From positions 744,001-808,000 of the forward strand of contig CAIIXF020000001.1 in NCBI GenBank assembly GCA_903813345.2: a DNA stretch of 64,000 nt, given 5' to 3'. This document shows, piece by piece, positions 20,165 through 51,800 of the stretch; the stretch's first letter is position 1; the number at the start of each line of letters is the position of its first letter. Made by a program: the position numbers and the translations under genes. The notes below the pieces were generated by a model. That model worked only from the letters and a program-made list of their open reading frames with translations. It did no database searches and was not told the DNA's origin. Source of the DNA: Owenia fusiformis (lineage: Eukaryota).

Positions 20165-23100
20165 ATGGATGGGAAACGAAGGAAAGTTTTTGTTGCTGGA
20201 GTTGGAATGACCAAATTTGAGAAACCGAAAGTAAAAGATTGGGACTATCCTGATATGGGTAAAGAAGCTGGTAAGTGAAGAGTCCTGTAAAATCATATAT
20301 ACGCAAGATCTATATGAAACATTTCTCAGGTTTATCATACCTAAATACTATTATTTCAAGCTGAGATGAGACCCTATCTATTGCAAGACCATAGGCTAAG
20401 GGTTAAGTAATAGTAAGCTGTATACAGAAGAGACAGGTAAACAATTAGGATTGAAAATTTTTTCAAAAACTTGCCGTCTTGGTACGAGTTCTCCTTACTG
20501 GTATCGAGTCGTACCACCAAATCTCCCAAGAATCTTCTCCAAAGTGTTTTCGAAACGTAGATTGTTGAATATTTCAAATCTATATCCTAACTCTTCGATA
20601 AGACAGCATAAAAAAACACCAACTGTACGAACCTGCAATTGCCCGGCAAGTTGAAACTTCCGGACACATGGAAAGATTGAAATTTCACCATTTAAATTGG
20701 GTTTAAAAAGATATTATATGAATCAGATGTTTTGATAAATAATTATTAAGTAAACCTTTTATAGTTTTGTACACTTTAATTGATTGTTATTTCTAGAAAA
20801 TGAATTACATTTTAGAGAACCAGATAGGTGTCACTTGCGGCGGTTAGCAGGAACCAATCAAATTCCTTGTTTCAAACTTCCATTCATGATTCAACACGGA
20901 AGTCCGGGTAACTTGCCAGGCAATTGTAGGTTTTCAGAATATCTCACCTCAAGACGGCTTTATTCACTCTATATCACTTGAATGTGGTTGATTCATAGGT
21001 AAGAATTGAGAACTATCAATTTTGGATCAACTCTGCATTGTTTTTTGCAAATTATACACAAATAATGTTAAAATCACCATGTTAACAAGTGGCCTAAATC
21101 CTAGTTGTTCACCTGTCTCTTCTGTATACCTTACTATTACTTAACCCTTAGCCTATGTGCAAGACTTATGCCGGGCACAACCGTCACCATGTTATTAAGT
21201 GTTTTTAAGTTTCGCAAGGATCCTGCCATGACCGTGGTAGTGTTATCGTGATAGCCTGGTATAACCGTGACAATGCTATATTATATTGCATGGCCTGTCA
21301 TGACCTTGACAATGCTATACTATATGACCGTCATGGGTGTAGCGCCCGGTACGCTGGGTACGCACAGGCGTACCAGATGGTTGCAAATTCACTCCAAATA
21401 CAACCAAATTTCAAAATTTACCCCTAGTATGTATCCAACAGACTGACTAGAAGTCAGTCTGTTATGATGTACTACTTTCCTGTGGAAATTGCAGTGAAAT
21501 TTTTTGCACAAAATTATCAATTAGAGGAATCATTTCTTCAATAAAATAAACATTACAAAATTTCAATTAAATAGTAAGGTACAATTAAATGCAATAAAAG
21601 GTAACACAGCGTATTGTGAAGTGGAAATAAAGCTAGTTGAAGTAACAAATGTGCAAATTAATTTTACCCAATCGGCCATTTCGAATAGCACTTCCTTTGT
21701 AAACAAATATCTAGAATTACCAAACTTTAACATAGGTGCCTTATAGTCTGAATATAATTCAGACTAAATAGGATATAGTCTACCCAGACCCCCCTAAATG
21801 CTCGTTTTTTGATTCACTCAACTCTTGTTCCGTGGTGGTGGTGGTGTACTACTTAGAAAAATAGCGCTACGCCCATGACCGTGGTAATGTTAAAGCCTGA
21901 TATGACTGTGGCAATGGCTGTAAGGCCTGTTATGACCGTGGTAATTGAGATTAACATTTACAGTTGAATGTTATGACGAAAGAAGATATCTAAATTCATA
22001 TAATTGATATCTATCTCATTCAAAGAACGTATATTAGACGTCCATGGCAACATTATCAGAGACGGTTCTCTTCATCGGGGCTTGGCTGGAGGGTCAGGCA
22101 AGCCCTCCAATGTGTCTGTACTGATCTAAATAGTAAAAGGGAGTTCTATGTCTATACTACCTTAAATTGAAAGAGGTTGTGAGGAAAAATCAATGGAATC
22201 CTTTCAATAATCAACTACTGATTCAGTGGCGTAGCTGTAATGTACGGCAATACGCCATGGCATCTAGTTGAAAATCCTCAGTGGGGAATTTTTTATTTTA
22301 CCTATCACTAGGTAAAATAAGTTATTCACCACAAAATACATGGGAACCTCATGAAGTTTTCCTTTCCAATGTAGCATACATTTTCAAATAATTATCCCAA
22401 CGAACGAAGTTCGGTAGGGATATAGTGAAGCCCTCCGTCCGTATTCTCCGCAAAGAGGGTAAACTAAGAGGACAAATCAACATAAGACCAACAGTAAGGG
22501 GAAGGGGATAGTTTTCCGGCCGGATTAAAACGTTTAACCCACCTATGCGCAGTCTCAAGTCTGTGGACCCTGAAGAAAGATAACTAACATCGCAATCAAA
22601 TCAAGACAAAGAAAGAAGAAATTAAATGAAGAAACCAATGCAGCAAAAACAAATGACGTCCGTCCGTCCGTCTGTCCGTCCGGAAGATAACTCAAATATT
22701 AGTTGACGGATTTTCTTCATATTTGGTGGAAAGATGTATATTGATGAATAGTTTTACGCAAAAAAATTTTTTCAAGATGGCTGCCGCTTTAAAAATGACA
22801 GGACTTTTTCGCAAAAATCATAAATTTTTCATTCTAAACCAAAGTAATTAATATTATTGTTTGAAATTTTGGTAGTATTCACCTTTCCACAAAGTCAAGA
22901 AAATCGATAATTTCCGCTGCGCTGATTGGCTGTATGCAAATGAGTTCAATCGATGACGTCAATGACTGAAACATTTTAGAATTTAGTACAGGCAGTCTAT
23001 GGAAAGTCTTACTTACCTGTAAGAATTCTCATTATATTTAAATCTTTGCTAAGTGTTTGGTAGAATCTGAGGAAAATCAAAGAAGAATGGTAAGTAAGAA

Positions 23101-26100
23101 GCAAAAATCGTCAATTTTAGACAGTGTCTGTTTCATTTTTATTAGATTTAAAGCGAAGTAAGCCTAGCTTGTTACCCGGAATTTGTATAACCTCAGAGCC
23201 AGTACAACTGTACAATGCATGCACATGGTTTGTTCAATAGAGTATTAATATCCCGGGGGGTTCACTATATACAAAATTTGACGGGGGTCCTAGGCTGAAC
23301 ATAAAAATCTGTCGAATTTCAATGTGTTCCCATAGTACCAACCAAAATAATTCCCAAAAGCCATACCAAATGTCAATATATGAGATCAATGCCATACCAA
23401 TTGGCAAATGTCTAAATATAGGACCAATGCCATTCCAAATATCCAGATATATGATTTTTAGAATTTGATTTAATCAATTTAATAGAACCCACTTTCATTT
23501 CATGTTATTAATGGTCTCATAATGAGTTTGGTTTAATCCATTTGACGAGTGATTAATTAAGACTTATAATTCTAGGAGCAGGCTTCAGCGCCCAATATGA
23601 TTGAAAATGCAGAAGCTGCAAGTAATCCCTCTCATGATACTCCAACTGTTCTAGAAGATAATGACATTGTGGATACATCATCGCAAAGTAATTGCCCGTG
23701 TAGTATACTGACAGTGAATGATGTTGATGGTGCGAGTCTTAATAAACCAATTGGTCAACTGAGAAAATCTGAGTGCGTTAAATGGCTTTTGTGTCGAGGG
23801 ATTAAGCCTCATTTTAAATCCACACTAGCAGCTCTTCGAACTAAAGTAATAGAAACTGAAAAAACGCAAGCTGTTCCAGATGATTCATTGATAATAAATG
23901 ATCCCGACCCCAACAATGCAAATTTACGGGCAAAGCAATCGAAATGCACAACCTGCAAACGCAAACGCATTTGCGATAGTCATGAAACCTCACCAGATAA
24001 TGTTTTCCCGAGTAAAGGATTCTCTTCTTCCTTTCCCGTTTCTCTTACTGGCTTTACATACAGCAATATCGAAAAATATGCAAAGAACAGTGGGAAAAAA
24101 ATCAAGACAACCATGGTCGAAAAGCCTTTTGAAAAGGGCTACTATTTTTTCAGAGAAAATTATATTCATGGTACGGAATGCAAAACGGCAAACGGATATC
24201 ATTATATAAAATCAAAGTGTTACCCATCCCAGAGAAAAAATACGTCCCCCCACACGCTAAAATGTACCATAAATGATTGCGAGGTAGAATCTGCGTCATG
24301 CTCATGTAAAGCAGGAAAATCAGGCTACTGCAATCATATTATAGGATTACTGTACCAAATTGATTATATGGGACAAAATAAATTATCATTTTTCCCAAAA
24401 GAGAATTCATGTACCGACAACCCCCAAAAATGGCACAAACCACGAACAAGTGGATTGTCGTCTGATACAGTGATGCTATCTGAAGTTTCTGTACCCCATT
24501 ATGGAAAAGACACAAGTCGAGGAATTAAATCTACGTTGTTTGACCCGAGACGTGACAAAACACCAATCGACACCAAGGGATTGTATTGTGATCTTATACA
24601 GATTGGGACACCAATAGATTTTACCCTGTTAAGTGGACAATGCAATCAGAACAAAGAGCAAGTGCCAACATCCTTGGGGTTTTCTGTGCCCAGGGGAAGT
24701 ATCTTGTCATATCAAATACCCCAAAATGATCCTAATTTTCATATTGAAGACACAATAGACTATGATAATAGACAAATAATTGTTTGTCCCGATGATTTCC
24801 CACCCTTCCCATGGAGCACTTTAAGAGACGATCTGCCTTGTTACAACGGACCCCTTGACGAGTGTTCATTAAATTTCATCAATACAAATGTAGCAGTTAC
24901 AACCAACGAAGCTCTCGATCTCGAGCAGAATACAATTGGCCAAACAACCGTACCATTGTGGCATAGTTCAAGAAAATGTAGATTAACAGCAAGCAAATTC
25001 GGACAAATTGTAAACAGAAAGACTAAGGAACACTCCAAGTTTATAAGAAATGAGCTGCTTGGTGGTTCTGTTGGTAAAACCTCTGAAGCTATGAAGTATG
25101 GGATTAAAAATGAAACTGTAGCAATTGAAAAATACAAAAACTACAGAGAGTGTAATGGAAACCCCATTAAAATTATGCCCACCGGGTTGTACGTTAATCC
25201 TAAGATTCCATTTTTAGGAGCCAGTCCAGATGGCAAAATCCTAGATCCCAACGAGGGGCCTGGTTTGATTGAAGTAAAATGCAGTTACAAACATAGGGAC
25301 ATTACCGTAAAACAAGCCTGTAATTTAAAAGAGACTGTTTTTTTCATGGAAACAAAAGACGACAAACCGTCTCTAAAGAAAACGCATAGATACTTTTTTC
25401 AAATTCAAGGGCAAATGGGTATTTGTGGGGCAAATTTCTGTGATTTAATTGTGTACACGAACAGAGGTATTTGTATTGAAAGAATAGATTTTGACCAAAA
25501 CGTTTTCAATTGTATGATATCTAAATTAAGCCGTTTCTATTTTGAACATTTTTTGCCAGTGATTGTAAATTGAAGTGATATAAATATATTTATTGAACTT
25601 AATTCATTCATTCTTTCATAAAGAATAAAATGGTGTTATTGTACCTATTAATTGCATTTAAACAATGGATGCACAGTAGAATATTGTTTATACATGTACT
25701 TAATGTTGCTTAATAAATACATGGGAAATTCTCATAGTAAACCTGAAGTTATTACTGATCATATTCGTATCTACACGGATCTTCGTTAAATCTGGACGAT
25801 TATTAAAATCAACAAAAGAAAAGAGTCCATACTTTTTTTGGTAAAAAACGATCTTCACTCACATCCATAAGTTTGGCAACCGAAAGATGAAATTCGACCT
25901 ACTTTGCTTATTTCAAGTGCAGAATCAACTATGGACAGGCTTTGATATTCGAGGCCTATCCAATGAAAATCACATGTTACCAAACTTATGGAGGGTAGTG
26001 TATATCCGTTATCTCCTATGCTCTGCTCAAGCGACTGTCCTACCAATACATGTTTTATTTACACAAAATACAACAATATCACTGGGGAGTAACGTGATGC

Positions 26101-29100
26101 AACAACACCGTGTTGTTGCATCAAGATGGCCAGACTTCCGGTGATAGATTTTCGTACGATATGTTGTTTCCCCAATTTAAACCCATTTCTAGGACGAGTT
26201 TCTCAATAACCATACACGTGAAGTTAGCGCACGATCTATTTTAAAGAAACTGTCATTTGTATACATGTAGCATCATCAAGAAGCAAGAAGTTCACGGTTT
26301 TAGTTCCTCACTATTGATGCAACAACACCAAACCGAAGATGCAACAACACTCCTCTAGATTTGAGCAATGATGCAACAACACCAATTAATAGTATAATTT
26401 CAGAAGACCATAAATCTCGAGAGGAACAGATTTTTAAATGCTACTGTTGCAACACCGGGCCAGTACCCCATTTGCGTTCTTCTCGGGCATTCAAAATGCA
26501 CGTCCTGCGGGCGAAGATTCTTTATATGTATTTTCAAAAATTTATACTTTTAAATATCATAATGTACTGGAAGTTGTTTTATAACATAGTTCAATCGCCT
26601 TTAACATTGCAAGCTATAGTAACCCAATCTATTATCATAAACCCCTGTTCCATAGCTTGATGACCCTGATACCAGTTAGTATCATTCAAAATGGTGGGCA
26701 AACATCTTTCGTTCTCGGTAAACACCGAACTCCCGTGCAGTGATATTATCACTGCGGCGGGCAGGTATCTCACCGTAAGCATGGTAACTTCGTAATAAAC
26801 AACTGACGTGATTGGTTCTAGTCCCATGCTCAGGTCGCGTGATTGTAAAATTTAGACAATTTCATTGGTTGAATTGTGCGTATTAACTAAAAAACAACAC
26901 GTGCGGTAAACTATTATCAACACAACTTTTACTCAGAATTCCTTCCGCGGTGATTTCTTCTCATATTTCAATAATTTTGAAATATTTTGACAAAATAATG
27001 TTTGGGGAACATTCATGAATACATATTTTATAAGTTGTGTGAAAATTGACCACATATATGATGAAAAAGGGAACTATTTTCCCCAAATTTTGGGGATTTT
27101 CTTCATCTGCCCGCCGCAGTGTCTATACCGAGACACTGCATGGGAGTTCGGGTAAACACGACAAGCTATTGGAAATCTTGCACAGCGCACATGTAGAAGT
27201 ATTGTTCTCTTTGGATTCGTTCTCCCCGATTGAGTAAAAATGTTGGTAATAGGATTTAGGTCCCGAAAAGGTAAATTGATAGGGGTACAGTAATCCCAGA
27301 TTCCCCCTGGGCCCTCGGGAAATATCATAATGTGTCCCGGAATAAAACCAATAGTGAATCCCTCTCTGTAAATAACCTCTATTATAAAGCATTGTATAAC
27401 TGCAATATCATTAAACCAACACTCATCGGAAGTTATGGGGTTTTGAAAACTCAAAATCGCTAAATTTGGTGCCCCATGTTAAGTCAATGGGAATTTTTTT
27501 TTTGAAGTGTAAAATACGACATATATACGACCGAGTACAGCTTAATTTAATGAAAGCCTTTAAATGAAGGGTACCTCAAAAGCAATCTAGCTTCAAAATT
27601 TGGACACAAAAATGTCTAGGTCAAAATCCAGGTCAAATTCAAAGTTTTCCTTATTTTTGTGATTCTGACACTACACTTCAATCATATTCTTCGAAATTGT
27701 GTATACATGCGTAGCCAAGAGTGTACTAATAGTGTTAGCCTTTTGCCGTCAGAAAGTATTTTAACCCACTTTTGAGATATGGTGCCCAAAAAGTAGGTCA
27801 AAATAAAAAATTCTCCAAAATTAACGTTTGAGTTATGAATGAAGAATAGGATTTTCTCAGGAATCGGAATCTGCAAACCAAATTTCGATCCGACTTCCGG
27901 TTCGGAAGTTATGGCGTTTTGAAATTTCGAGAAAAATCGATCTGATGGTATCCTGATAGAAAGTCAAGAGTAGCGAAGAAAATGTTGAAAACCCCATCCA
28001 TCCTTCCTATCCTATCCTACTATTCTATCCTATCGTTCCTTCTTATTCTATCCTATCCTTCCTATCCTATCCCTTTTATCCCTATCCGTTCCTTCCTATC
28101 TATCCTTCATATCCTTTCCTTCCTATCTATCTATCCTTCCTATCCTTTCCTTCCTATCTTATTTGAAAATCACCTTGCTATTCTATCCTATCTTTCTTCT
28201 CTATTCTCTCCCATCGTTCCATCCTATTCTGTCATATCCCTCCTTCCTATTTCATCCATCCATCCATCTTTTTCTGGATGACTCGGCTTAAAAAAATCCA
28301 GATCTGGAGTCTGAAATTGAACTTGTTCAATTTCCAAAGTCTAGTTATATTAGTTCTTTGTAAACAATTTCCATACGATACGGTAAATCAAGGGGATTTA
28401 ATTTAGAAAATGAATAATCTTTATTTTTCAGATACAATATCAATGAGGTTGGCTCACGGGGATTCAATACTTAGCCTATGTATTTACTTTACGTTGTATA
28501 TCCTTTTAACTTTGATAAAGACAAATACATTAAGGAACCAAACAAAATACGTTTCATTCATGAACCGCGCACTCACGCGTTTTATTCATGTCCCGACCAA
28601 CACCTATAAACAGAACATAAAACAGTTTCTCTTGATATTCAATGATACATTATATTGGCGTTTTTGCATCAGCACATTGGTGTTGTTGCATCATTGATAA
28701 TAAACAGAGTGGTGTTGTTGCATCAATAGTGAGGAATTAAAACCGCGAATTTCTCGCTTCTTGATGATGCTACATGCATACTAATGAGAGTTTTTTTAAA
28801 TATAGATCATGAGCTAACTGCACGTGTATGATTATTGAGCAACTCGTCCTAGAAATGGGTTTACATTGGGAAAACAAAATATCGGACGAAAATCTATCAC
28901 CGGAAGTCTGGCCATCTTGATGCAACAACACGGTGTTGTTGCATCACGATACCCCCCAGTGAATATAGTACATATTCTGTATTTCACATATTATCGTCAT
29001 CATCATCATCACCACTTAAATTGCCATTGTCGCAGTCTGCAGCAGAAAAACATGTAACATTTTCATTGGATATTATTGGTGGCTGAAACAGTGATAATAA

Positions 29101-32100
29101 GGCACTGTTGGCCCACATCTGGTTGACTGACCCAAAAAGATTAATAGGAATAGGTCTATCGAAAATGTGATTGTTTTTCACTTTCCTTATACTTCGCTCG
29201 ACATGAATGCGCTCTGCAGCGATCTGTTGCGTCTTGTAGACATCTTCTGCATTCATCTGGTCCTCCAGACCAAGGAAGGGCGGGATATTTAGATTGACAC
29301 CAAGGGGATCTAATAAATCTTTTATTAAGAATCCCTTATCCACCATTACGTCGTCGTCTTTGTCGAATGGGAGTTGCAAAAATCCAGATCGTTCAGTGAT
29401 TTCTCTATCTGAAATACTTCCGTGGAAGAGGGAACTCACAAATGTAGGCGCCCCCTGTGGAGCGATTCCTAAAAGTCCCTTCAACGTGTTTGTCGATTTG
29501 TAGTTCGAATATGTTTGAGATTTAAGGGTTAGAGATTTCGGCATCTGACATTTGATCTCAAAAGCGTCTAAGATTACTCTGGTGTTAGGATATTTTTGCT
29601 TAAATGACGCTGGCATTGTTTGCTGAATTTGGTTTTTACTTGGCCAAATGTTCATGGACCCCAACGTGATGTAGAGAAAATTTACCCACTTCAGGAACAA
29701 ATTAGACACGGTGGATTTTGAAATACCAAATCTAATTGCCAAATCCATTTCGAACATGCCTAGTCTAACCCTACACAGATAAAGTAGGAATTGGTCCTCC
29801 ACGGACAGTTTATGGGGCCTGCCTGATTTTTTCTTTATTTCAGATGATTTGTCAGAGCGATTTGCGATGTTTTCACCGCTTTTTCCTGGATTCAGAAATG
29901 CAAGAACAGAAAGAAATGTTTGTTTGTTTGGAAATCCAGTATAAAATGGTATATAACGTTCGTGAAGATTATCGAATGTGAACACATTGGCTTTTAGCCT
30001 TTCATTTTCTTCTCGTAATTTGTCACACTGGATTTTAGTGTCATTATCCGGTTCATTGACGTTTTTTGTGGCAGTCAGTTTCATTATGTCAAGCTTCAGT
30101 TTTAATATTTTGTTCTCTAGTTCAGCCTTTTCCTTCTTTGATACGATAATTTGTAGTTTTGCACTCACTTCTTTTAATGTCTTTGTTGTACACGTTTTAC
30201 ATTCATAACCAACTGGAGTAAGAGGAGGGGATTGTAACCCTCTTGGTTCGGGGATAGAAGATACAGTTTTTTATCAGTAAACTCATGATTGTTTTCCACT
30301 CGATTAAAGGGGTCTTTTCGCCGTTTTGAAGACACATTCATATGAGGGACATCTGACCAGCATTTAAATACGTGGGGTACTATTCCTGCTTTTAAAATAC
30401 GTCTCTTGCTGAATCCGTGATACTCAAAAGCTTCGTCAGCAAAATGTAAAGAACAAACTCTACTCGATGAAGTTAATTGAAACTTTTTATCTTCAACCCT
30501 ATGTATCGCAATAAGCCATTTGTTTTTCATACTTTCTGGAACTTTAATATATGTGACTAACTTCTCATCAACCTTCGCTTTCCCGTAAGACGTGCACATC
30601 GGTACAATGCAATTTTTTCCCGATTTCTTTTGTTTGGGACAGTTGTTCTCATCTTTATTCAAATGATATCGATGGTATCCTGCTGGATCCTAAATAAAAG
30701 AAAAGTTCATGTTATGCAATTGCATACATTTATCTTTGCTGTACAATATTTCTAATTCTGACTTTAGATACCATTTTTTGTGAGTCGTGGATTATTAATG
30801 CGAACTATTTATCTCTTACCATATGATATACAATCTTCACACAAATCATGGTATATAAGTTTTATATCGCATGATGCTCATATTTCCCGGTGAATAAATT
30901 TGTAAAACTAGTATGCAATATGTCATTTGAAAAACACTTTCCAGTATTATGGTGTCGGCGAAAATGACATATTTACCTCGGAAATTCCTCCACAAATCTT
31001 ATTATATATGGGGATTTAATATTAATTTTATTTCCTCGGAAAATAGCTTACCGTTGATCCTTGGAATATATCCCATACAATATCTTTTCTCAGTAAAGAA
31101 TTACCTCTCAATCTGATTTGACAGAGATGACCAGGTGAATATGATATTTGCAATGGATATTAGCAATCGTTATTATGAACTTGTATTGTAATTAGGGTAA
31201 CTATACAAATCAATAATCAAAGTACATGAGAGTGCCCCCTCCGGAACATAGTACAACACAAGTACACCTACCGAGACGGATAACTAATGTTAATGTCTGC
31301 TGTACATTTCCATTCAATGTTGTCAACAGATCAATGACCGGCAATGAATCTCTTGTCAATTACTAACCTAGATACAGTAATATTATTACCAAAAGGGCAT
31401 AAACATATGTGAATGTGATGTATAATACCAAATCGATGATTATTTTATGATAACTTACCATTTTGAAGCAGCTAAATTGACTGAAAGTACCCAGAGATTT
31501 ACATGTAACTCAACCGGATTTGTGCTTTCGCGGGAAAAGTTTCTACCATTGACGTCATAGATTTTTAAGCGGCTCATTATAATATTCATGAGCTGACTTT
31601 ATGGAAAGGTGAATATTCGCAACATCTATCTATTTCACATATATTCAGTGTTTTTCATCCTGACCCCCAGGGGCCGTGTATGGGGGGTCAGGAAAACAGA
31701 AATTTTCGCTAATTTTTAGATCTTTCTGAAGTATAGCTTTATTATACTCAAATGAAAGGCAATTAAGAGTAGATTGCAAATATTGTATCTTTTTTCTGAT
31801 TCGAGCCTCGTAAAATTCAAAATGGCCGTCTAATGTACGATTTCGCAATAATTTTTCGATCCCTTCAACGTATGGCTATATAATACTCAAATTGAAGGAA
31901 TTTTGGAGTAGATCACAATTATGGTATTATTTTTCAGATTTGTACCTCAGAAAATTCAAAATAGCTGCTTTGCAGGAATTCGCAATTCTAAAATCTAAAT
32001 TTTTCAATTTTAACCAAAGTAATGAGTATAATTGATTGGAATTCGGTAATTGATATTTTGTTCGTTGGGATTTGCTACTCCGCGGAGTTGCCATCATCTA

Positions 32101-34331
32101 GTTTATCATACAGTATGCATTTTATCAATTTTTTCCATTCATTATTTTTAACGGCATTGTTGCATCTTACTTGAAAGCACCATGCCATTTAGTAGCCTCA
32201 GTTTTTCTGTTCTCCTAATTGTGATAGATTTTGATTGAGTCATATCATAATTTGTAGGACTTGCAGCACTGAAAGATGCGGGAATACCATATGAGAAAGT
32301 AGAGGCAGTTGTGTGTAGTTACAACTATGGAGACCCAACCAGTGGCCAGAGGGCGCTGTATGAGATTGGTCTGTCTGGAGTTCCTGTTTTCAATGTTAAC
32401 AACAATTGCTCTGCTGGTTCTTCAGGGCTAATGATGGCAAGGCAGCTCATCAAGGCTGGACATGATTGTGTTATGGCATTAGGTATTTAAACATTTGTGT
32501 ACATCTGCATTATTATGGTACATCTGATAAGTATTGATATCCTCTTAGCGAGCTTCTTATATACTTCACTTTTTGACTTGTTGCTCCTGCTTTCCAAATC
32601 ATATTTCAAGATCCATTTGTTGTATTTTCCCAAATGGGGAAGTTTTTTCATGATTTCCTGAAAATGTGGTTGTCACTTTTTGTATTATTTTGTACTTTAC
32701 TGAATATATGTATTTTATATTGATTGGTCACAGACACATCATGTAACTGGTCATAGCACATCAAAGGTCATCATTTCACCATTAATAAGCCAATCAGCAT
32801 TCAGAATACATATGAGATACTGTATAATGATAAATTCTGTTCATTGAAGGTTTGATGAAAAAATCATAAGCCAATCAGCATTCAGAATACATATGAGATA
32901 CTGTATAATGATAAATTCTGTTCATTGAAGGTTTGATGAAAAAATCAGAAAGACTCCAAAAATAAATGCTTATTCCTATATTTTTAGGTTTTGAGAAAAT
33001 GGAAGGAGGATTATCCGAGACATTCAAGGATCGTACTTCTCCAGTTCAGCGTCACATGGATCACATGGTCTCCCTCGGGGCAGAACCTGGTCTGATTGGT
33101 CCAGGCTATAATGCTATGACATCAGATGTCATCAAACTGTTTGCATATGCTGCAAGAGAATACATGGAGAAATATCCTGGTGCTATGACTTTTGAGGATC
33201 TTGTGAAAGTTGCGTATAAAAATCGTAAGCATGGGGCCAATAATCCAAAGGCTTCTTTGCAAAAACCTACCTCGATGAAAAGCATTGCCAACAAGGATCG
33301 AATAATGATTTATCCAATCACGATAGGCATGACTGCCATGACAGCAGATGGTGGAGCTGCTGCAATTGTCTGCAGTGAAAATTTTATTCAAGAGAACAAA
33401 CTTGAAAATCGTGCGATTGAAATCATCGCTCAGCATATGGTAACTGACCTCCCATCTTCATTTCATAAAAGCATGATGGACACAGCTGGCTACAGCATGT
33501 CAAAATTAGCTGCTGAAAAAGTTTATAAGGACTCAGGCCTGCAAGCCAAGGATGTAGATGTCATTGAAGTTCACGACTGTTTCTCGTGTAATGAAGTGTT
33601 TATGTATGAAGCCATGCAACTTGTAAAGGAGGGTGAAGGAGTTAAGCTGTTCAATACTGCCAAGTGGGTGAATAACAAGGCTGGGGGTGAGGTTTGTCAG
33701 CTAGGGGGGCGCTGGGTTGTCAATCCATCAGGTGGAATAGAGTCTAAAGGTCATCCTATAGGAGCAACAGGTAGGTTCAAAACACCAGTGACTAGAGGTT
33801 CTGTTACATTAATATTATATTCAATGAATACTAATACAAATTACTTTTATTTGCATGTTTGTAATTATTATGCTCATATACTTAAAAATTAAAGGATCTC
33901 AAGCCACTCTGTATTTAAAATACACAGTTAATCAGTTATGTTGAACTAAAATGAATGCAAGTAGATTGTGTATATTGAAAACACAGAGGTTCTTGAACTT
34001 GTACTGAAGGCTCAATATACAAGTTCAATATGTTATGACTTCCTTTCAATGTCAGGTCAAAATCTAGATTGCACTTATCAGATAAAATGGATAGGGTCAT
34101 AGTCTAACATAGAGCTTGCCATTGCTACACTTCAGACGTGAATGACATGTAATCCAACTGTTTGTTTCAGGTCTGGGGCAGTGTGCAGAGTTGGTATCGC
34201 AACTAAGAGGTGAGGCTGAGAAAAGACAAGTAGAAGGGGCAAAAGTGGCGCTACAACACAACTATGGAATAGGGGGAGCTGCAGTCGTCACCATGTACCA
34301 GAGGCCAACCTTCAACACTGCAAGACTTTAG
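20165..34331 (+). CDS. SCP2-like: Peroxisomal SCP-x-type (SCP2/DAF-22-like) thiolase, 424 aa, no C-terminal SCP2 domain
   Basis: Exons 20165-20270, 32258-32482, 32988-33770, 34171-34331 (1275 nt, GT-AG, in phase). Motifs [21 protein letters not shown] (catalytic Cys), [30 protein letters not shown]; ends -ARL* (PTS1). Confidence 0.95.
20390..21157. mobile_element. MITE with about-60-bp TIRs and 8-bp TSD (P- or hAT-type)
   Basis: TIR CATAGGCTAAGGGTTAAGTAATAGTAAG.../...CTTACTATTACTTAACCCTTAGCCTATG; TGCAAGAC duplicated at 20382-20389 and 21158-21165. Confidence 0.9.
21332..21877. mobile_element. hAT-like MITE with 5-bp TSD
   Basis: CATGGGTGTAGCGC...GCGCTACGCCCATG; ACCGT on both flanks (inserted in a loose atgaccgtgg repeat). 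Confidence 0.75.
22915..22965 (+). promoter_or_regulatory. Putative internal promoter of the YqaJ gene (CCAAT box, octamer, CRE)
   Basis: gattggc, ATGCAAAT and TGACGTCA clustered 25-65 bp inside the left TIR; mirrored CRE at the right end. Confidence 0.45.
23087..25573 (+). CDS. SWIM zinc finger + YqaJ/lambda-exonuclease-like (PD-(D/E)XK) nuclease of the transposon, about 666 aa, intact
   Basis: ORF 23597..25573 extended by ATG-only exon 23087-23089 (GTAAGT donor) spliced in frame to 23576. SAP-like KWLLCRG segment; [30 protein letters not shown]; YqaJ motifs [41 protein letters not shown]. Confidence 0.92.
26080..28961. mobile_element. Non-autonomous TIR element with CACTG termini, about-260-bp TIRs and 5-bp TSD, nested in the ISL2EU element
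   Basis: CACTGGGGAGTAACGTGATGCAACAACACC... vs ...GGTGTTGTTGCATCACGATACCCCCCAGTG; AATAT at 26075-26079 and 28962-28966; repeated GATGCAACAACAC motifs; no long ORF; CCTAT-rich tract about 27995-28270. Confidence 0.88.
28984..31461 (-). CDS. THAP + HTH + DDE (DDE_Tnp_4/Harbinger-family) transposase, about 569 aa, split by one frameshift
   Basis: ATG-only exon 31461-31459 (GTAAGT donor) spliced to 30689 gives [15 protein letters not shown]...; [60 protein letters not shown]; catalytic region [25 protein letters not shown]. Adding one base in the 6-nt homopolymer at 30267-30272 joins ORFs 30174..30662 and 28984..30168. Confidence 0.9.
31525..31593 (-). promoter_or_regulatory. Putative internal promoter of the transposase gene (CRE, E2F-like site)
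   Basis: cattgacgtcat (reverse complement of the left-end atgacgtcaatg) and tttcgcgggaaa just inside the right TIR, about 70-100 bp before the ATG exon. Confidence 0.45.
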
Positions 34332-39800: not shown

Positions 39801-42800
39801 TGGCAGAATTATCTAGAGTTAGGTACCAATAGGCGTGTAAGGTCACTGCCAGAACTATCTAGAGGTAGGTACCCATAGGAGTGTAAGGTCACTGCCAGAA
39901 CTGTCTAGAGGTAGGTACCCATAGAAGTGTAAGGTTACTGCCAGAACTATCTAGAGGTAGGTACCCATAGGAGTGTAAGGTTACTGCCAGAACTATCTAG
40001 AGATAGGTACCCATAGGAGTGTAAGGTCACTGCCAGAACTATCTAGAGGTAGGTACTCATAGGAGTGTAAGGTCACTGCCAGAACTATCTAGAGGTAGGT
40101 ACCCATAGGAGTGTAAGGTCACTGCCAGAACTATCTAGAGGTAGGTACCCATAGGAGTGTAAGGTTACTGCCAGAACTATCTAGAGGTAGGTACCCATAG
40201 GAGTGTAAGGTCACTGCCAGAACTATCTAGAGGTAGGTACCCATAGGAGTGTAAGGTCACTGGCAGAATTATCTAGAGGTATGTACCCATAGAAGTGTAA
40301 GGTCACTGCCAGAACTGTCTAGAGGTAAGTACCCATAGAAGTGTAAGGTCACTGCCAGAACTGTCTAGAGGTAAGTACCCATAGAAGTGTAAGGTCACTG
40401 CCAGAATTATACAGTTAGGTACCCATAGGAGTGTAAGGTCACTGCCAGAATTATCTAGAGATAAGTACCCATATATGTGTAAGGTCACTGCCAGAATTGT
40501 CTAGAGGTAGGTACCCATAGGAGTGTAAGGTTACTGCCAGAACTATCTAGAGATAGGTACCCATAGGAGTGTAAGTTCATATATAGATTTATGCTTGTTC
40601 ATTAGAAAATTATTTAATGACCTACCATTATATTTGATGTTAAAAATCCCATCACAGAGAAATACTGTATAATAGCAATGCAAGCATGCAATTTTATAAG
40701 CCTCTGAGTATAATTCCATATACATATTTATGCATGAGCATTCCAAGTCTTTTATTATTGATGAGTATTGGTAAGTATGCAGTCCCTACAAAATGGTTTC
40801 AAAACCTAAGGTGGTCGCCACAAAGAGCAATCTCTTTTTCTTATTGTTGTATATATTACATTTGAACAAAGAGTCTGTGTATAACTTGACCCGAATACAA
40901 CATTTCAGAGCCTGGCAGAAACATCCTAGAGTTACCTATACACCAGCAACCAGAGGAAGCCATTGAACTACCTAGCCAGCTTCCCTTCCTACAGCCCTTA
41001 CCCAACCCACCGCCACAACCACAACTTCCTAACCAGACATCACCTGGAAAAGGAGGTAAGATGGTACATCTAATGTTTTGTAAGGGAAATTGTTGTTGGA
41101 TCAGTCACCTATGAAAAAGAATATGTCTGGTTGGTGTCACTGTTCTAATATTTAAATATGGAAGTGAGTTAATATGTCTGGTTGATGTCACTGTTCTAAT
41201 ATTTAAATATGGAAGTGAGTAAATATGTCTGGTTGATGTCACTGTTCTAATATTTAAATATGGAAGTGAGTTAATATGTCTGGTTGATGTCACTGTTCTA
41301 ATATTTAAATATGGAAGTGAGTAAATATGTCTGGTTGATGTCACTGTTCTAATATTTAAATATGGAAGTGAGTTAATATGTCTGGTTGATGTCACTGTTC
41401 TAATATTTAAATATGGAAGTGAGTTAAATATGTCTGGTTGATGTCATTGTTCTAATATTTAAATATGGAAGTGAGTTAAATATGTCTGGTTGATGTCATT
41501 GTTCTAATATTTAAATATGGAAGTGAGTTAAATATGTCTGGTTGATGTCACTGTTCTAATATTTAGATATGGAAGCGAGTTAATATGTCTGGTTGATGTC
41601 ACTGTTCTAATATTTAAATATGGAAGCAAGTTAAATATGTCTGGTTGATGTCACTGTTCTAATATTTAAATATGAAAGTGAGTTAAATATGTCTGGTTGA
41701 TGTCACTGTTCTAATATTTAAATATGGAAGTGAGTTAAATATGTCTGGTTGATGTCACTGTTCTAATATTTAAATATGGAAGTGAGTTAAATATGTCTGG
41801 TTGATGTCACTGTTCTAATATTTAAATATGGAAGTGAGATAATATGTCTGTGTTTCCCACTGAAATGAATTGATGAATGATGTTCAATAAATATATAATG
41901 TTGGCATCTCTGTGAAAGGTGTGATTATTTCAGATGCCATGGAAACTAGGTGCCATGGAAACTGTGATTGTTTCAGATGCCATGAAAACTTATTACTTGA
42001 AATGTTATAAATTTCTGAATGATGCAATGTTTTTTTTGTTTTTGTTTTTTTTTTTTATTAAAAATATTTATTCTCTAAAATTAAAATCAAATACATAATA
42101 ACACTAGACACTTTTAATAAGTGTATCAGCGTGAAAACATTTAAATATTAACCTGAGTCAAATGGAAATGAGAAAAAAAACAATTTAAAAATATTTACTC
42201 AGTTAAATGAGAATAAAATTGATAACAATATATAAAATCTACATATATGTTTGTCAGTAATTCAGTTCAGAATAGGTTGATGTCATATGAATTTTAAAAT
42301 TCTTTTTAAAACAGTTAATGGAAGGTAATGTTTTCAAAGAAGTTGGCAGATTATTCCAAAGCTGAGCACCTGAGTATTTTATTGAGTTTTGACCTATAAT
42401 TGTTCTAAATTTTTTCATGTGAAGGCAATTTTGGAATCTTGTCTCATGTTCATGAAATATCAAATTTGGAGTAAAATAATTTTCAAATATGTCAAAAGGA
42501 AAGCCATCGGGTTTTGTTGTGTATTGATAAAGAAATTTTTCAACTTCAAGCTTATGTATGTCAAAAATATCTAGAAAATTGAGTTGTTTAAAAAGAGGTG
42601 GGCTATGTGCTAAAAAGTCAGAATTTGTGATTATTCTCACTGCACGTTTTTGTAACAAAAGCAATTTATTCAAAAAGGTTTTACATGCATTACCCCATAT
42701 GATGTTGCAATAGTTCAATTGTGATAATATAAGTGAATTATGGTATGGTAATCATGGTTTTTGCATTCAATTTATATTTAATCTTTCCCAGAATACCAAT

Positions 42801-45800
42801 AATTTTAGATATTTTATGTATAACCTTATTTATGTGCTCATTCCATTTTAATTTACAATCAATTGTTACTCCCAGAAAATTTGTATGCATTACTCTTTCA
42901 AGAATATTACCCCCTATTTTTATATTAAAATCTTGATTTTCATCAATATTTAACTTTGATCTTGTAAATAGCATATAATTTGTCTTGTCTATATTCAAAG
43001 AAAGTTTATTTGATTTGAACCATTCTAATGTCTTTTCCATTTCTAGATTTACATTTCTATATAGATCATGAAGGTCTTTGTTTGAACATAAGATACTTGT
43101 ATCATCTGCGAAAATAGTAAATTTAAGAATATTTGAAACCTTATGTAAATCATTAATATAGAGAATGAATAAGATGGGGCCTAAAACAGACCCTTGAGGT
43201 ACACCACAAGTGATAATATTTTCTTCAGATAGAGTGTTGTTAAAAGAAGTAATGATTTTCCTATCAGATAAATAGCTTTCAAACCAATTTTTTGCGACAT
43301 TGCGAATTCCAAAATTTTCAAGTTTTTTTAGAAGAATTTCATGATTTACTGTATCGAAGGCTTTCGATAAATCTAAAAATATTCCAATAGCATGAGTTGA
43401 GCTTTTATCTAGAGATATCCTCACTTCTTCCAAGAAGGAGAGGATTGCCATATAAGTTGAATAATGTTTTCTAAAACCAAACTGATTTTTGAATAAAAGT
43501 TTGTATGTTTCAATAAATGTTATTAATCTATTTTTCATGATCTGTTCTAAGAGTTTAGAAAAGACACTAAGTAGAGATATAGGTCTATAGTTTGAAAATT
43601 TTGAAGTATTTCCTTTTTTAAAAAGTGGGATAACTTTGGCTGTTTTCAACTTAGTGGGAAAAACCCCTGTATGGATAGACAAGTTTGCTATATGAGCAAA
43701 TGGTAAAAGTAAATTATTTCTTGCATGTTTAACTACTATTGGTTTGAATTCATCTAGGCCTGGTGAGCAATCTTTTAAAACTGACATTAAATTTTCGATT
43801 TCATCCTTACTCACAGGAGTAAGTTCTAAAGAAGATTCATTGATTTCCATAAATGTAAAAGGGGACTCTGTTAAAATGATTAGGAATATCTTTTCTATCA
43901 GTCAAAGTATCATCTCCATCATAAAATTTATCTGGAAAAACTGAATCACATTTTTTGCGGTGAAGTAAGTCATTTATAACTGACCAAGTATTCTTGATAT
44001 TATTGCTTGTTTCAGTAAATCTATCACAAAAATATTTCCTTTCTGCTTTGCGGATTAATTTATGGAGTTTGTTTCGAAAAGTTTTGTATTCAGCTAGATT
44101 CTGTTTCGTTGGGTGTTTCAAAGTATTTCGATAAAGTTTATTTTTCTGTTTCACAGATGTTAGTATACCATGTGAGAGCCAAGGCTTAATTGAGTTCTTG
44201 TGAATTTTTGTATTTTTGACTTTTACAGGGAAATATTCATCATATTTTCTACTAATTTTGTCTGCGAACAAATTATAAGCCACATTTACATCAACCTTTT
44301 CATTAATTATACCTGTCCAATCTATATCTTTCAGTGAATCACTAAAATTATTAATTGCACTCAATGAATATTTCCTAAAAGTGATTTGTTTGTTTTCACA
44401 AACATTTTGATAGTGTGATGTAAGGGCAAAGATAGGATGGTGGTCAGAAATGGGAAATGAAAGAAGACCACTTTTGATTACATTATTTGAATTAGAAAAG
44501 ATATTATCAATAAGCGTAGCACTTTTTTCTGTTATTCTAGGTTTAAAAATCAATGGGTTATAAGATTGGGAGTATAATAGATTAAGAAAATTCAACGTTT
44601 GTGCATCACTTTCAGTTTTAAGTAAATCAATGTTGAAATCACCCATTATAAAAGAAAATTTATGTTCCCTATCAATTTTAGAAAGTAGGCTCTCAAAACT
44701 TTCAAGAAAAGATGCCATGTCTGTATTTGGTGGTCTATATATTATAGTAATAACCATATTTTTCTCATTTTTCCTAGGAATTTCAATAGATAGTGATTCA
44801 CATGCTTTATAATCTAATTTGAGGTCATCCCTATGTTTAAAGTCAATGCCTTTTAAAATATGAAGTGCAACACCACCCCCTGGTCTATCTTTCCTAGAGT
44901 TAAAAATACTATTATAATTAGAATCATTTTCCTCATAAATAGGCTCTAAGTTTGATGTAAGCCATGTTTCAGTCATACCAATAATTGAAAGATTATTTTT
45001 TAACAATTGCAACATATTATGGAATTTCCATTGATTTTTAGATACACTCCTCATGTTGATGTGTAACATACTAAGATCATTTGATTTTTGTAAGTGATAG
45101 TTAAATTGATCTATATTATTGTAGTTGCACTGATTTACTGATTGATTTATTTCAAAATCATGTGCAGTGAGAGGTTCATCCTTCTGTCTATTTTCTAAAG
45201 TCAGTGGATTAAAAATAAGACTTTCATAATCATTAGTTGGAATTGAAGAAGGTGCTAAGTCAAGAAATTCAATTGGTGTTGCCTCATAAAATGGAAACAT
45301 CTGCCATTTTCTTGTTAACAACAAGTAAATGCATAATGTTGGCATTGTCATGGAAACTGTGATTATTTCAGATGCCATTGAGATGCTGATGCTGCAGAAT
45401 GCTCAGATGCATCAGTTAATCATGCAACAGATGATGATGTCAGCTTTGCAACCTGGTAAACCACTTCAAATGATGGAAACTGATGCCCACAGTCATCTCA
45501 ACCAACAACCTTCACAGTCTCAACCTCCTCAAAAACTCAACAACATCTCTGTTTTACCACCAATACATTCTAAAAGGTAGCATAAATAGTACCCTTCAGA
45601 TTTATTTGACAAAGCTTCCTAAACTTCACTGTTTCGGTTAAAGAGAATCCTTTAAACTCACCAAGCCAGTCAGAGATTGGCATCAAAATGGCCTACTTTC
45701 TATTTCTGATAATTTTCTCGAGTCATTGTTGACTCAGTAATTACCAACATTACAATATTATTTAATTGTGTTTCTCTCCTTTGCTGATTGGTTGTGAAAA

Positions 45801-48800: not shown

Positions 48801-51800
48801 CATGCACAAGTAATGTACTACAGTGCCCCATGTACTAGGGCACGAGTCATTTGAGCCATATATACCTCCTGGTATATACCTTTACAACCAATTCAGAAGG
48901 GTCATTTACAATGTGCAAAACATGGCAAAAGTTCCGTAAAACTGTTAGTTCTCATAATCTGACCATATACCAGAGTCCTCATTAAGCCATGATGCATCAC
49001 AGCCAGATGTTAGAAAAGTAGCCAAGAATCGTTTTATTAACCAAAGATGACTTTCCCAACGATGTTGCATCACACTGTACTGTCAACTGTACATGTTGCT
49101 TTCAATTTTGTTTACTCTACATAGATCTGATTCTGCATTTAAATACCAAGACTTCAGTTTACTTCAACTGTCATGACTAAAGCATTTGATAGTATTTACA
49201 TAATAATGTTATAAAGGAGTATGTAGGTTATCGCAAACAACTTCAGACAATGGTCCTTTTTCCATATAGCTTTGAAATCTCGTTAAGGTCTTGTTTTTAA
49301 TGAGATTTTAGGAGATCTGCATTTTTAACCATTAAAAACTAATGTTTGCACTGTAATTTACCATTATTCAAATTCTAATGATTTCCTGGTTGTCTAAAAA
49401 AGGTTGGGCTAAATCCCCATTGACACAATGCTGAAAAATCTTAAAAAGTTCATTTACTCTTCCAAGGATCACAATTTTAATGTGAAATCACAATCCACAT
49501 GTCAATAAGATCATAAAGTTACATTCCAATGATGTTTTAAGTTGATCCAAATCGAATTACTTCTTAAATCAAGAAATTAAGTGTGGCAATACATTTACAT
49601 GTATTCTAGCCCTACCCAAGCTCTACCAATACCCATGATGCCATCTACTTTTCATTTATATGGATAAAGGTCAATTCTAACTTGAATTATGAATATTTTC
49701 TGACCATGAACATAGGTATATCTTTTAGATCTATTCATTATCTTCAAGAAAAGTAAATATAATGATTAATCAGACCTAAGTCAGAGGCGTAGCTAGCCCA
49801 TTTTGCGAGTGTACGCCCGTATGATTTCCCGGTTTTATCATAATTAACAAAACGATGGTTCCATAAAATAGGAAGATCCCGTGTGTTCAGAAGATAAGGG
49901 ACACACTAAACACTCTTTATTCAATGAGGGAAATATGTATTGTTTGATCATTTTGACAAAGCTTTTTAAAGGGATTGAATTAACTGTATTAACAGATAAT
50001 ATCCGGGAAACAAAAAATACAGATTCTATATAATCATGCCATCGGCGATCGAAGCCGTCTATCAAAGCGATTTTATTTTTTAGGCTACCTAAAACTGTAT
50101 GTATGAGACTCACTGTTTTAAGCTTTTGTGGTCATTCTCCATGAAATATTATTATTTTTTCTGTGTTTGTTTTTATCTAGCTCACAAGATGATTAACAAT
50201 AAAAGAACAGTTACACGACCGTCTCAACTCCATTTCGGATCTTAACAATCTGTACGTGATTCTATAGAATAAATTCTATCTTTCTGTTTTTTTGCATTTG
50301 CGAACATGTCAATAACAGTATCAATGTTTATATCCTGTTCCCTATGGATATGTATCATGGCCAAGGAAGAAGGTCTTTCCTCGTTCATTGTGGAACGCAA
50401 GTATGAGTTAATGCGTTTCAAACTGCTAAAGCTTCGTTCAGCCACGCAAGTGGATACTGGCAATGTTAGCAGCTGGACCAAACACGTGTAGACATCGGGG
50501 TAAAGAGGCTGGGGGTCTGTTGAATAATCTCCTATCGATTTCTATCTCTTGGTAAAATATTTATTTTTCATCACAATTAATCAGGTAAATTTTATTTTTC
50601 CTTAAAATTTGAGAGTACGCCTGGGCGTACTTGGCGTACACGTAGCTACGCCACTGTAAGTGATATTAAAGGGAATGGCCCAATCAACATACTTTTTACT
50701 AAAAATGATGACCTAGCTTTTACCAAAGATGCAACCTTTAATTATATTCTTGAATGCATAATTAGAATATGCTTTGAGACATGTTCTATTTCCTAAGAGG
50801 AAAAAAGGATTGCTCCAGGGACTTTAAAGACACTGAATTTGGATGACCAAAATGAACTGAAACCAATGGATAGCATGACTTTTTTCAAAGGGGAAATAAC
50901 ATGGGGAACACTAATCTTAGGGGAATTCAGTTTTCGTTTCAAGAGCTATTTGATATATTAAAATAAAGAATAGTAATGCACTAAACATTGTTAAAAGGAT
51001 TGCATTTTTGGTGAAAATGAGGTCAACAACCTTGAAAAAATATATTGATGGGTTGATTGCTAGTGAAATATCTCCGAGTCCGATTGCCTTTATTATCCCT
51101 GTATACCTGTCTTCATGGTCAGGAAATAGTCATAATCAAAGATATAACTGTCTGAAATTGTTTGTGATAACTTACCTGAACATTTCCAGGTAAAATCAGG
51201 AGTGACACAATTTATTTCCACCAATTTTTTGACATGTCTTCAAATATACGATAGTATTTTCTTCATAAGATAGAGTGTCACTTGTGAAATTTATTGATTG
51301 ACCTGAGATCGTATCATATCTTTATGACATAGAAGCGAAATAGCCATATTGAACTTTAATGAATGTTGTTTGCCACTTTTCGACAATTCCGGCAAAATTT
51401 GGGGGTTTTGGGGGAGGGGTACAATTAAGTTAAAAAATTCACCTGATTCAGACTATCCTTAAATGAGCACTGATTCACCCGAGAGCATAACTTTTCCAAA
51501 ACATGTTAGTGTTATTTTTGGACCACTCGCATTAATGTTTCGTCTAATTTTTCCTCAGAGTTTCCTCACCATTGTCTTAGGCCATATTTATTGAGATATA
51601 TGAATGTTCATTATTAAAATATTGCCTTCCTTTGCAGTTGGAGAAGACTCGGCATTAGGTGTTATAAGTCCCAGACCACGATAAATAAAAAATAACAACA
51701 CAATGACATAAAACTGATAAACGTTTTCTCTTGTGCGTGTCAGCCATGGTCTACCAAATTAATTGCTATTCAGTGGGAAGAAACTCATTTTTCAGTTTCC

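Follow-up and report, generated by a model that had tools for sequence, protein, structure and literature searches.

An ISL2EU-Group DNA Transposon of Owenia fusiformis and the Possible Role of Its Predicted Lambda-Exonuclease-Like Partner

Introduction

Cut-and-paste DNA transposons of the ISL2EU group (PHIS superfamily, related to PIF/Harbinger) combine a transposase gene with a second gene for a nuclease. Positions 22879-31612 of the stretch analysed here almost certainly hold one copy of such an element in an animal genome; the stretch, or window, comprises 64,000 nucleotides of Owenia fusiformis contig CAIIXF020000001.1, and all positions are counted within it. In the available excerpts of the family description, ISL2EU is defined by a duplication of the dinucleotide AT at the target site, a transposase with THAP, HTH and DDE domains, and a second gene with a YqaJ domain (PMC4482050). 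According to the same excerpts, the terminal inverted repeats (TIRs) measure 6-259 bp and mostly begin with GG, the elements average about 4,840 bp, the hosts are animals and twelve families are "potentially active"; the function of the extra gene is stated there as unknown (PMC4482050). The YqaJ gene is described likewise in the excerpted parts of PMC4122938 and PMC9179366. An earlier note on this DNA, made from its letters, had remarked that no role of the nuclease was demonstrated; PMC4482050 and PMC4122938, as far as excerpted, say the same, and no experiment on the ISL2EU nuclease is apparent from the titles and abstracts of later papers mentioning ISL2EU, among the matches listed. Both the family and its YqaJ partner are already in print, and the element described here, an ordinary member of a catalogued family, adds one further member.

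Several related or comparable systems have been described. According to the excerpts available, Harbinger elements produce a 3-bp TWA duplication, have a Myb/SANT DNA-binding partner and encode a transposase without THAP. Spy elements, the nearest transposase lineage, are filed by Repbase under ISL2EU (PMC12730594); in the excerpts, they show no target duplication and have a single gene (PMC4482050, PMC4122938), and they transpose on their own (PMC11304231). KolobokE, from another superfamily, is reported in excerpt to have acquired a nuclease of the lambda-exonuclease type as well (PMC9587614). Among PHIS transposons, only ISL2EU elements have a seemingly obligatory partner that is an enzyme and not a DNA-binding protein, and what this enzyme does touches on the way in which transposons deal with the DNA breaks they produce. 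The locus as a whole is probably best explained as an ISL2EU copy with an end-processing nuclease partner.

Element Boundaries and Insertion Site

Four species-labelled public runs were mapped on positions 20879-33612: X24 (raw DNA reads), X1 (DNA contigs), X2 (contigs) and X21 (raw RNA reads). The ends of the element are fixed by copies of the surrounding repeat that are free of the insertion. In these copies, 22876 is joined to 31613, so that 8,736 bases are skipped and two letters fit either side. The joint is supported by 787 raw DNA reads of X24 (384 + 403) from 202 start places, and it is also present in X1 (13 contigs), X2 (3 contigs) and X21 (32 + 301 RNA reads). Since the unoccupied site carries a single AT, the element extends from 22879 to 31612 (8,734 bp) and is flanked by a 2-bp AT duplication. 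The terminal features are as follows:

22877-22878, no strand: left copy of the AT target-site duplication (two-letter overlap at the joint)
22879-22897, plus strand: left TIR, 19 bp
22948-22976, no strand: left subterminal repeat, with the palindrome TGACGTCA at 22954-22961 (inverted pair with 31535-31563, 29 nt, 83%)
31535-31563, no strand: right subterminal repeat, with the palindrome TGACGTCA at 31550-31557 (inverted pair with 22948-22976)
31594-31612, minus strand: right TIR, 19 bp, pairing with the left end
31613-31614, no strand: right copy of the AT target-site duplication (unoccupied-site joint)

The 21-mer ATTCACCTTTCCAYAAAGTCA has exactly two matches in the window, at 22877-22897 (plus strand) and 31594-31614 (minus strand), while shuffled sequence gives 0.04 matches on average and two matches were reached in 0 of 100 shuffles. 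The TIRs begin with TCACC, stand in T-AT-A flanks and pair at 18 of 19 positions, with one C/T mismatch. The earlier note had read the 19-bp repeats with their one mismatch, the AT flanks and the exact ends of the element from the letters, and the unoccupied site bears all of this out. A longer TIR (32 nt, 84% pairing) was also considered and is ruled out by the joint, which places the ends at 22879 and 31612. No second copy of the element was found within the 64-kb window.

The subterminal inverted pair stands about 55-75 bp inside each end. Its palindrome TGACGTCA, presumably CRE-like, lies upstream of both putative mini-exons considered below. It may serve as a promoter element common to both genes or as a site bound by the transposase.

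The transposon is inserted into a high-copy repeat. The depth of X24 reads over the surrounding repeat is 175-530 (per orientation column) and elsewhere 0-1.1 in the single-copy bins of 32354-33612 and 0-0.75 in the coding bins of the element. The host repeat (22154-22876 and 31613-32353) consists of tandem units of about 139 bp. Its RNA reads in X21 are strongly strand-biased, with 127-492 in one orientation versus 11-46 in the other, and reads on it end loosely at 22389-22391, 22442 and 32103.

The element itself is low-copy, as follows from the X1 depth of about 105 over its interior contigs versus about 70 on the single-copy flank, and it is nearly whole, with the qualifiers of one nested insertion and one frame break in the transposase. 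Subtraction of the nested insertion leaves 5,847 bp. At every listed site, the X1 and X2 contigs deviate from the window, and therefore distinct copies or alleles exist. The earlier suggestion that this copy is young enough to reconstruct finds no backing in them: the coding differences between the window and X1/X2, among those listed, are 12 amino-acid-changing and 6 silent (18 in all, a small sample), with no sign of constraint. One of them, N328D in the X1 transposase, affects a column that is invariant in 17 relatives.

The Nuclease Gene

The first of the two genes runs rightwards and has a single long open frame:

23576-25573, plus strand: main exon of the SWIM + lambda-exonuclease-like (YqaJ) gene, 665 codons and stop (open from stop to stop)
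23741-23875, plus strand: SAP-like helix-extended-helix, residues 49-93, weak assignment (VIA-align structure matches)
24035-24397, plus strand: SWIM-type zinc finger, residues 147-267, with C235, C237, C245 and H247 (ZSWIM8 fold match)
24869-25570, plus strand: lambda-exonuclease/YqaJ-type PD-(D/E)XK domain, residues 425-658 (structural matches, aligned motifs)
25229-25231, 25271-25273 and 25277-25279, plus strand: catalytic codons D545, E559 and K561 (LHK-Exo alignment, conservation)

An internal ATG at 23597 would give a protein of 658 aa. The earlier note had described an uninterrupted SWIM and YqaJ gene with the motifs GASPDG, EVK and YxxQxQGQ, and the 665-aa frame does carry them (GASPDG at residue 541, EVK at 559-561, YFFQIQGQ at 599). 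In Pfam, the frame matches YqaJ (E 4.9e-15; 56.5 bits, cut-off 22) and Viral_alk_exo (E 2.5e-6); the SWIM score of 16.8-17.9 bits lies below the cut-off of 19.6, and the SWIM assignment draws its support from the fold.

An AlphaFold model built with 78 sequences has a mean predicted local distance difference test (pLDDT) score of 82.2, and residues 421-658 reach 89-98 except for one 10-residue block at 81. Residues 452-658 of the model superimpose on LHK-Exo with Z 17.1 (root-mean-square deviation (rmsd) 2.4, 175 aligned residues), while lambda exonuclease (Z 16.3) and the Epstein-Barr virus (EBV) alkaline nuclease (Z 14.7) fit overlapping ranges inside 422-658. A Foldseek search likewise matches the lambda-exonuclease fold (E 7e-8, TM 0.70). 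D545, E559 and K561, together with the QxQxQ helix, align with LHK-Exo (3syy). According to the model, the protein has the fold of the lambda-exonuclease/YqaJ family with its D/E-x-K active site intact. The likeness to lambda exonuclease, YqaJ and LHK-Exo thus concerns the fold and the D..E-x-K and QxQxQ motifs; in contrast, sequence identity in the structural alignments with lambda exonuclease and LHK-Exo is only 16-25%, and the element protein differs from lambda exonuclease in its eukaryotic transposon setting and in a 420-residue N-terminal extension with the SWIM and SAP-like parts.

Within this extension, the part from residue 147 to 267 superimposes on the ZSWIM8 SWIM domain (Z 10.9, rmsd 2.4, 103 aligned). 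Residues 49-93 match the SAP domains 1zrj, 2do1 and 1h1j with Z 5.3-5.5 only, which may reflect just a common arrangement of helices, and Pfam gives no match to residues 1-140. Protein-atlas matches to residues 140-424 are only unnamed eukaryotic clusters, some of them with SWIM or YqaJ. The middle region of the protein includes a conserved CTSxPQxWHKPR motif, in which W279 is kept in 28 of 28 sequences.

The Transposase Gene

The second gene is convergent with the first and is distributed over two overlapping frames:

30177-30689, minus strand: THAP zinc-finger part (C-x4-C .. C-x2-H, then ..VPHVF; Pfam THAP E 6.2e-13)
30174-30272, minus strand: single frame-break zone between the THAP and DDE frames, with an A6 run at 30267-30272
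28984-30270, minus strand (stop included; frame 28987-30270): HTH_Tnp_4 and DDE_Tnp_4 part, 428 codons and stop (Pfam)

The DDE frame matches HTH_Tnp_4 (E 2.5e-17) and DDE_Tnp_4 (E 2e-33). Its catalytic triad, D235 (29566-29568), D311 (29338-29340) and E358 (29197-29199), is intact, and the three columns are invariant or nearly so among 17 sequences. The Pfam check of both proteins proposed in the earlier note has thus recovered THAP, HTH_Tnp_4, DDE_Tnp_4 and YqaJ, with SWIM left below its cut-off as given above.

Between 30174 and 30270 the THAP and DDE frames overlap, with the latter in -1 relative to the former, and insertion of a single letter would unite them. The A6 run lies where the overlap begins. 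The break may be genuine, confined to this copy, or introduced by the assembly. A THAP-HTH-DDE gene broken by one homopolymer indel had been proposed before; the domains, the single break and the A6 run are as described there, while the homopolymer cause is a plausible candidate and not an established one. Placement of the break by homology gave no result, the THAP-DDE linker being unconserved in relatives.

It is somewhat unlikely that the transposase is not truly broken, with the absent letter of the A run being an assembly error or a feature of this copy only. In favour of this reading, the X1 contig covering 29741-30503 has 764 letters for the 763-letter span with one gap, i.e., an extra letter somewhere in this span, of exactly the sign and size needed; moreover, the coding contigs over the nuclease gene have no gaps, and the frame relation with the A6 run at the junction fits. 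However, one-letter gaps also occur in the flanking non-coding contigs, at about 2 per 1,080 letters. The same frame relation would suit a programmed slip, which would yield a THAP-only protein and a rare full-length transposase. Such a slip is very improbable: relative to the THAP frame, the A run is out of register for a canonical X XXY YYZ site, and relatives such as P0021, P0026, P0027, P0041 and P0043 have THAP, HTH and DDE in one uninterrupted protein. Two particular candidates were rejected, namely a canonical -1 slip heptamer, since the A run is not in the right frame, and a 52-nt GT..AG intron spanning the break, whose length is 1 mod 3 when 2 mod 3 is needed.

The transposase terminates in six consecutive aspartates, for which a GAT/GAC repeat (28987-29010) codes. 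Copies vary in this aspartate tail, as follows from 5 gap letters and 7 other letters in the X1 contig at 28962-29384.

Start Codons and Expression

The THAP frame has no in-frame ATG upstream of the zinc finger. Start codons of both genes appear, from the sequence, to be supplied by short terminal exons:

23087-23089, plus strand: putative nuclease start codon at the end of a short terminal exon, ATG/GTAAGT (same 9-mer at the other element end)
23090-23575, plus strand: putative nuclease intron 1, 486 nt, GT..AG (acceptor ..ttctAG abutting the open frame)
30690-31458, minus strand: putative transposase intron 1, 769 nt, GT..AG, with a pyrimidine-rich acceptor
31459-31461, minus strand: putative transposase start codon at the end of a short terminal exon, ATG/GTAAGT

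ATG/GTAAGT is present at both ends of the element, about 150-210 bp inside the TIR, and in both genes the long frame is immediately preceded, in phase, by a pyrimidine-rich acceptor ending in AG. On the basis of these mirrored signals, terminal mini-exons ending in the start codon are predicted, each followed by an intron (486 and 769 nt). If true, the split start codons would tie the expression of both genes to splicing. The description of the element in the earlier note as near-intact and broken only by one indel is to be qualified in this respect: the nuclease frame is open and the transposase has one break, but a 2.9-kb insertion is nested in the element and the transposase needs an upstream exon for its start codon.

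Several observations lend such splicing no support. The motif ATGGTRAG was found at both ends in 0 of 24 related loci, with a single upstream match in three, so that the mini-exon ATG is not shared with these loci. An X2 contig crosses the putative transposase intron unspliced, the X2 contigs covering both transposon genes are unspliced, and the raw RNA reads of X21 have about zero depth over both. X2 is RNA-like at the neighbouring thiolase gene, where a spliced contig joins 32478 to 32984 (GT..AG) and the depth, by bin arithmetic, comes from exon parts alone; its contig depth is 65-85 over the transposon genes versus 523 over the thiolase exons.

A moderately repeated stretch (23004-23480) lies inside the putative nuclease intron 1. 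The X1 depth is 9,298 in the bin 23004-23428 versus about 105-180 further in, and the X1 and X2 contigs both break at 23474-23480.

Comparison with Known Families

The element agrees with ISL2EU in the AT duplication, which was tested with the unoccupied site, in the THAP, HTH and DDE_Tnp_4 domains, though here these are distributed across two frames with one break, in the YqaJ second gene, in a 19-bp TIR within the published range and in its animal host. The ISL2EU (PHIS) filing proposed earlier accordingly agrees with the published definition as excerpted (PMC4482050). Two features count against the assignment, both of them departures from published tendencies in the same excerpts: the TIR starts with TC versus the usual GG, and the flanks are T-AT-A versus A-AT-T. 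The length without the nested insertion is 5,847 bp, compared with a published mean of about 4,840 bp. The element shows the published defining features of ISL2EU and departs only in tendencies, and the THAP domains and linked YqaJ genes of its relatives provide indirect support for the clade.

With PIF/Harbinger, the element shares the HTH_Tnp_4 + DDE_Tnp_4 type of transposase and the two-gene layout; unlike Harbinger, it has a 2-bp AT duplication and a nuclease partner. It differs from Spy in having an AT duplication and two genes. KolobokE, also a eukaryotic DDE transposon with the same type of nuclease, has, as excerpted, an unrelated transposase and a nuclease fused downstream of it, not a separate convergent gene.

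Linkage, Conservation and Co-Divergence of the Two Genes

A search with the transposase frame returned 351 related proteins, the best of them with 58-67% identity and many with THAP, HTH and DDE in one frame; the named matches come from marine invertebrates and ticks. The nuclease gave only 20 proteins in a word search (at most 35% identity), while a full scan found 10,042 cluster representatives with a YqaJ domain at E <= 0.001, of which 288 had E <= 1e-30; the best identity was 38%.

Linkage was assessed in 80 metagenomic loci encoding a transposase relative. A YqaJ-family frame stands downstream on the opposite strand, i.e., convergently, in 43 of the 80, a share that is 37 of 49 among loci with at least 1 kb of flank and 26 of 32 with at least 2.5 kb. 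One locus has YqaJ-family matches elsewhere only. The tail-to-tail gap is 57-1,575 bp in the related loci, compared with 523 bp here without the nested element. The earlier note had considered that the two frames might occur apart elsewhere, which would speak against a two-gene transposon; they are linked and convergent in the related loci, and an X2 contig, representing another copy or allele, also links both genes. A search for TIRs in 15 related loci found clear ends in about nine (alignment score at least 20) and weak or no ends in the rest; the ends of L016, L026 and L032, which read AT/ACACGAC, likewise depart from the usual GG start.

The catalytic residues of the nuclease are highly conserved in the related loci (D545 in 40/40, E559 in 40/40 and K561 in 36/40). 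Pairwise identities of the DDE core and of the nuclease domain are correlated with Pearson 0.88 (31 elements, 465 pairs), a value that 0 of 2,000 permutations reach, and the elements of this set share only 42-64% transposase identity. Kinship among the sequences inflates such a correlation, which therefore shows co-inheritance and not interaction. The nuclease is a long-term, co-inherited partner of the transposase. Linkage, conservation of the active site and co-divergence taken together suggest that the nuclease activity likely matters to the element.

Some of the data speak against its importance. In 6 of the 32 loci that have 2.5 kb of flank or more, the nuclease was not found; its divergence is faster than that of the transposase (mean identity 42% versus 57%); and in the window compared with X1/X2, its gene has 4 silent and 5 replacing differences among those listed, a small sample with no sign of constraint. 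All three would suit a passenger without a part in transposition, e.g., a captured viral gene that has some other benefit, for instance against viruses or competing elements, or has not yet been lost, and the abundance of YqaJ-domain proteins noted above also speaks for it. This explanation is given a low probability, since a useless passenger would decay or vanish, and here the gene retains its place and orientation, its catalytic residues persist and the two proteins diverge tightly together.

The SWIM ligands C/C/C/H are kept in 25/25, 25/26, 27/27 and 27/27 related loci, i.e., as much as the nuclease site. Together with the conserved middle region around W279, this would suit an adaptor, in which the SAP-like and SWIM parts bind DNA or recruit other factors (end recognition, nuclear import, complex assembly) and the nuclease is secondary; the Myb-like protein of Harbinger is a precedent, as far as excerpted (PMC9179366). 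An adaptor is nevertheless quite unlikely. The transposase already owns THAP and HTH DNA-binding domains, a mere adaptor would have no need of the D and E that are invariant in 40 of 40 loci, and the SAP assignment is weak (Z 5.3-5.5, none in Pfam).

Possible Role of the Nuclease in Transposition

According to what is known of the family, the THAP-HTH-DDE transposase would bind the inverted ends and the subterminal repeats, excise the element and insert it at an AT dinucleotide, which becomes duplicated. The nuclease would then process the DNA ends made during transposition; by analogy with its relatives, such an action on ends is rather likely. A more specific version, which is tentative, is that the nuclease resects the 5' strands of the double-strand gap at the donor site, so that a homologous sequence still carrying the element can serve as template for its repair. 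Homologous gap repair of this kind would keep the donor copy and spare the host a toxic break. The proposal is made because relatives of lambda exonuclease have 5' to 3' activity at the ends of double-stranded DNA. If true, donor-gap repair would make a cut-and-paste element effectively copy-preserving. The autonomous transposition of Spy, reported in excerpt (PMC11304231), suggests that the nuclease is more likely an accessory for the aftermath than a partner in the chemistry itself.

In a rival proposal, the nuclease would be a catalytic subunit of the transposase machinery. Cleavage of the 3' strands would fall to the DDE transposase and that of the 5' strands to the PD-(D/E)XK enzyme, and excision would require the nuclease. 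Tn7 offers a likeness, as TnsA/TnsB place a DDE transposase beside a nuclease of PD-(D/E)XK fold. TnsA falls in the same broad PD-(D/E)XK class as the element nuclease, and herpesvirus relatives of the fold also cut as endonucleases, in line with the match to the EBV nuclease; strict linkage, the conserved active site and co-divergence would follow as well. TnsA is, however, a bacterial restriction-enzyme-like endonuclease and not a relative of lambda exonuclease, and the top structural matches of the element protein, LHK-Exo and lambda exonuclease, are processive exonucleases. Besides, Spy is active in cells with its single gene (PMC11304231, in excerpt), and Harbinger needs just a non-catalytic Myb-like DNA-binding partner (PMC9179366, in excerpt). 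A TnsA-like role is therefore improbable, and processing of ends after the cut is preferred.

The end-processing reading is weakened in one further respect. Phage Exo/SSAP modules pair the nuclease with a single-strand-annealing protein (SSAP), whereas Pfam gave no match to RecT, Red-beta or YqaK, nor to any further family, in the element frames of at least 85 aa, a scan that left out three frames overlapping the two coding genes and that smaller or spliced genes could escape.

The broadest proposal, that ISL2EU elements are two-enzyme systems in which the nuclease is needed in vivo, either for donor-gap repair or for TnsA-like strand processing, and that in this lineage both genes are driven from the mirrored ends through split start codons, is doubtful as a whole. 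With its mapped ends, open nuclease gene, complete set of transposase catalytic residues and a sister copy or allele free of the nested insertion, the element offers a concrete experimental substrate.

Nested Element and Neighbouring Features

The spacer between the convergent genes is occupied by an unrelated element:

26080-28961, no strand: nested non-coding TIR element, 2,882 bp, with 252-bp inverted ends (92%) and termini CACTGGGG

It is flanked by a 5-bp AATAT duplication (26075-26079 and 28962-28966), and 17 bp (28967-28983) separate this duplication from the stop codon of the transposase. The nested insertion postdates the insertion of the ISL2EU element itself. An X2 contig joins 26074 to 28962, and therefore a copy or allele without the nested element exists. 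The nested element is extremely high-copy in all four runs, with a depth hundreds to thousands of times that of the ISL2EU element. No Pfam families were found in its frames, and it contains an ATCCT-type microsatellite at 27996-28251. The earlier note had overlooked this element, as well as the surrounding high-copy repeat and the absence of an own ATG from the THAP frame.

The window is AT-rich (GC 0.27-0.41) and includes the following further features, which mark it as animal DNA:

32251-33889, plus strand: thiolase (SCPx-like) gene, with exons including 32257-32478 and 32984 onward
42257-45402, minus strand: non-LTR (long terminal repeat) retrotransposon (LINE), with an Exo_endo_phos frame (43840-45402) and an RVT_1 frame (42741-43901, E 2.4e-38)
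50245-50541, minus strand: fragment of a hAT transposase, C-terminal dimerisation domain (E 1.7e-9)

The thiolase gene matches Thiolase_N (E 7.4e-7) and Thiolase_C_1 (E 1.1e-15), and 17 RNA reads, as well as the spliced contig, bear out its intron 32479-32983. This contig has 290 extra upstream letters that are not placed next to 32257; therefore, the transposon may lie in an intron of the thiolase gene. In the LINE, the endonuclease and reverse transcriptase frames are different and overlap by 62 bases.

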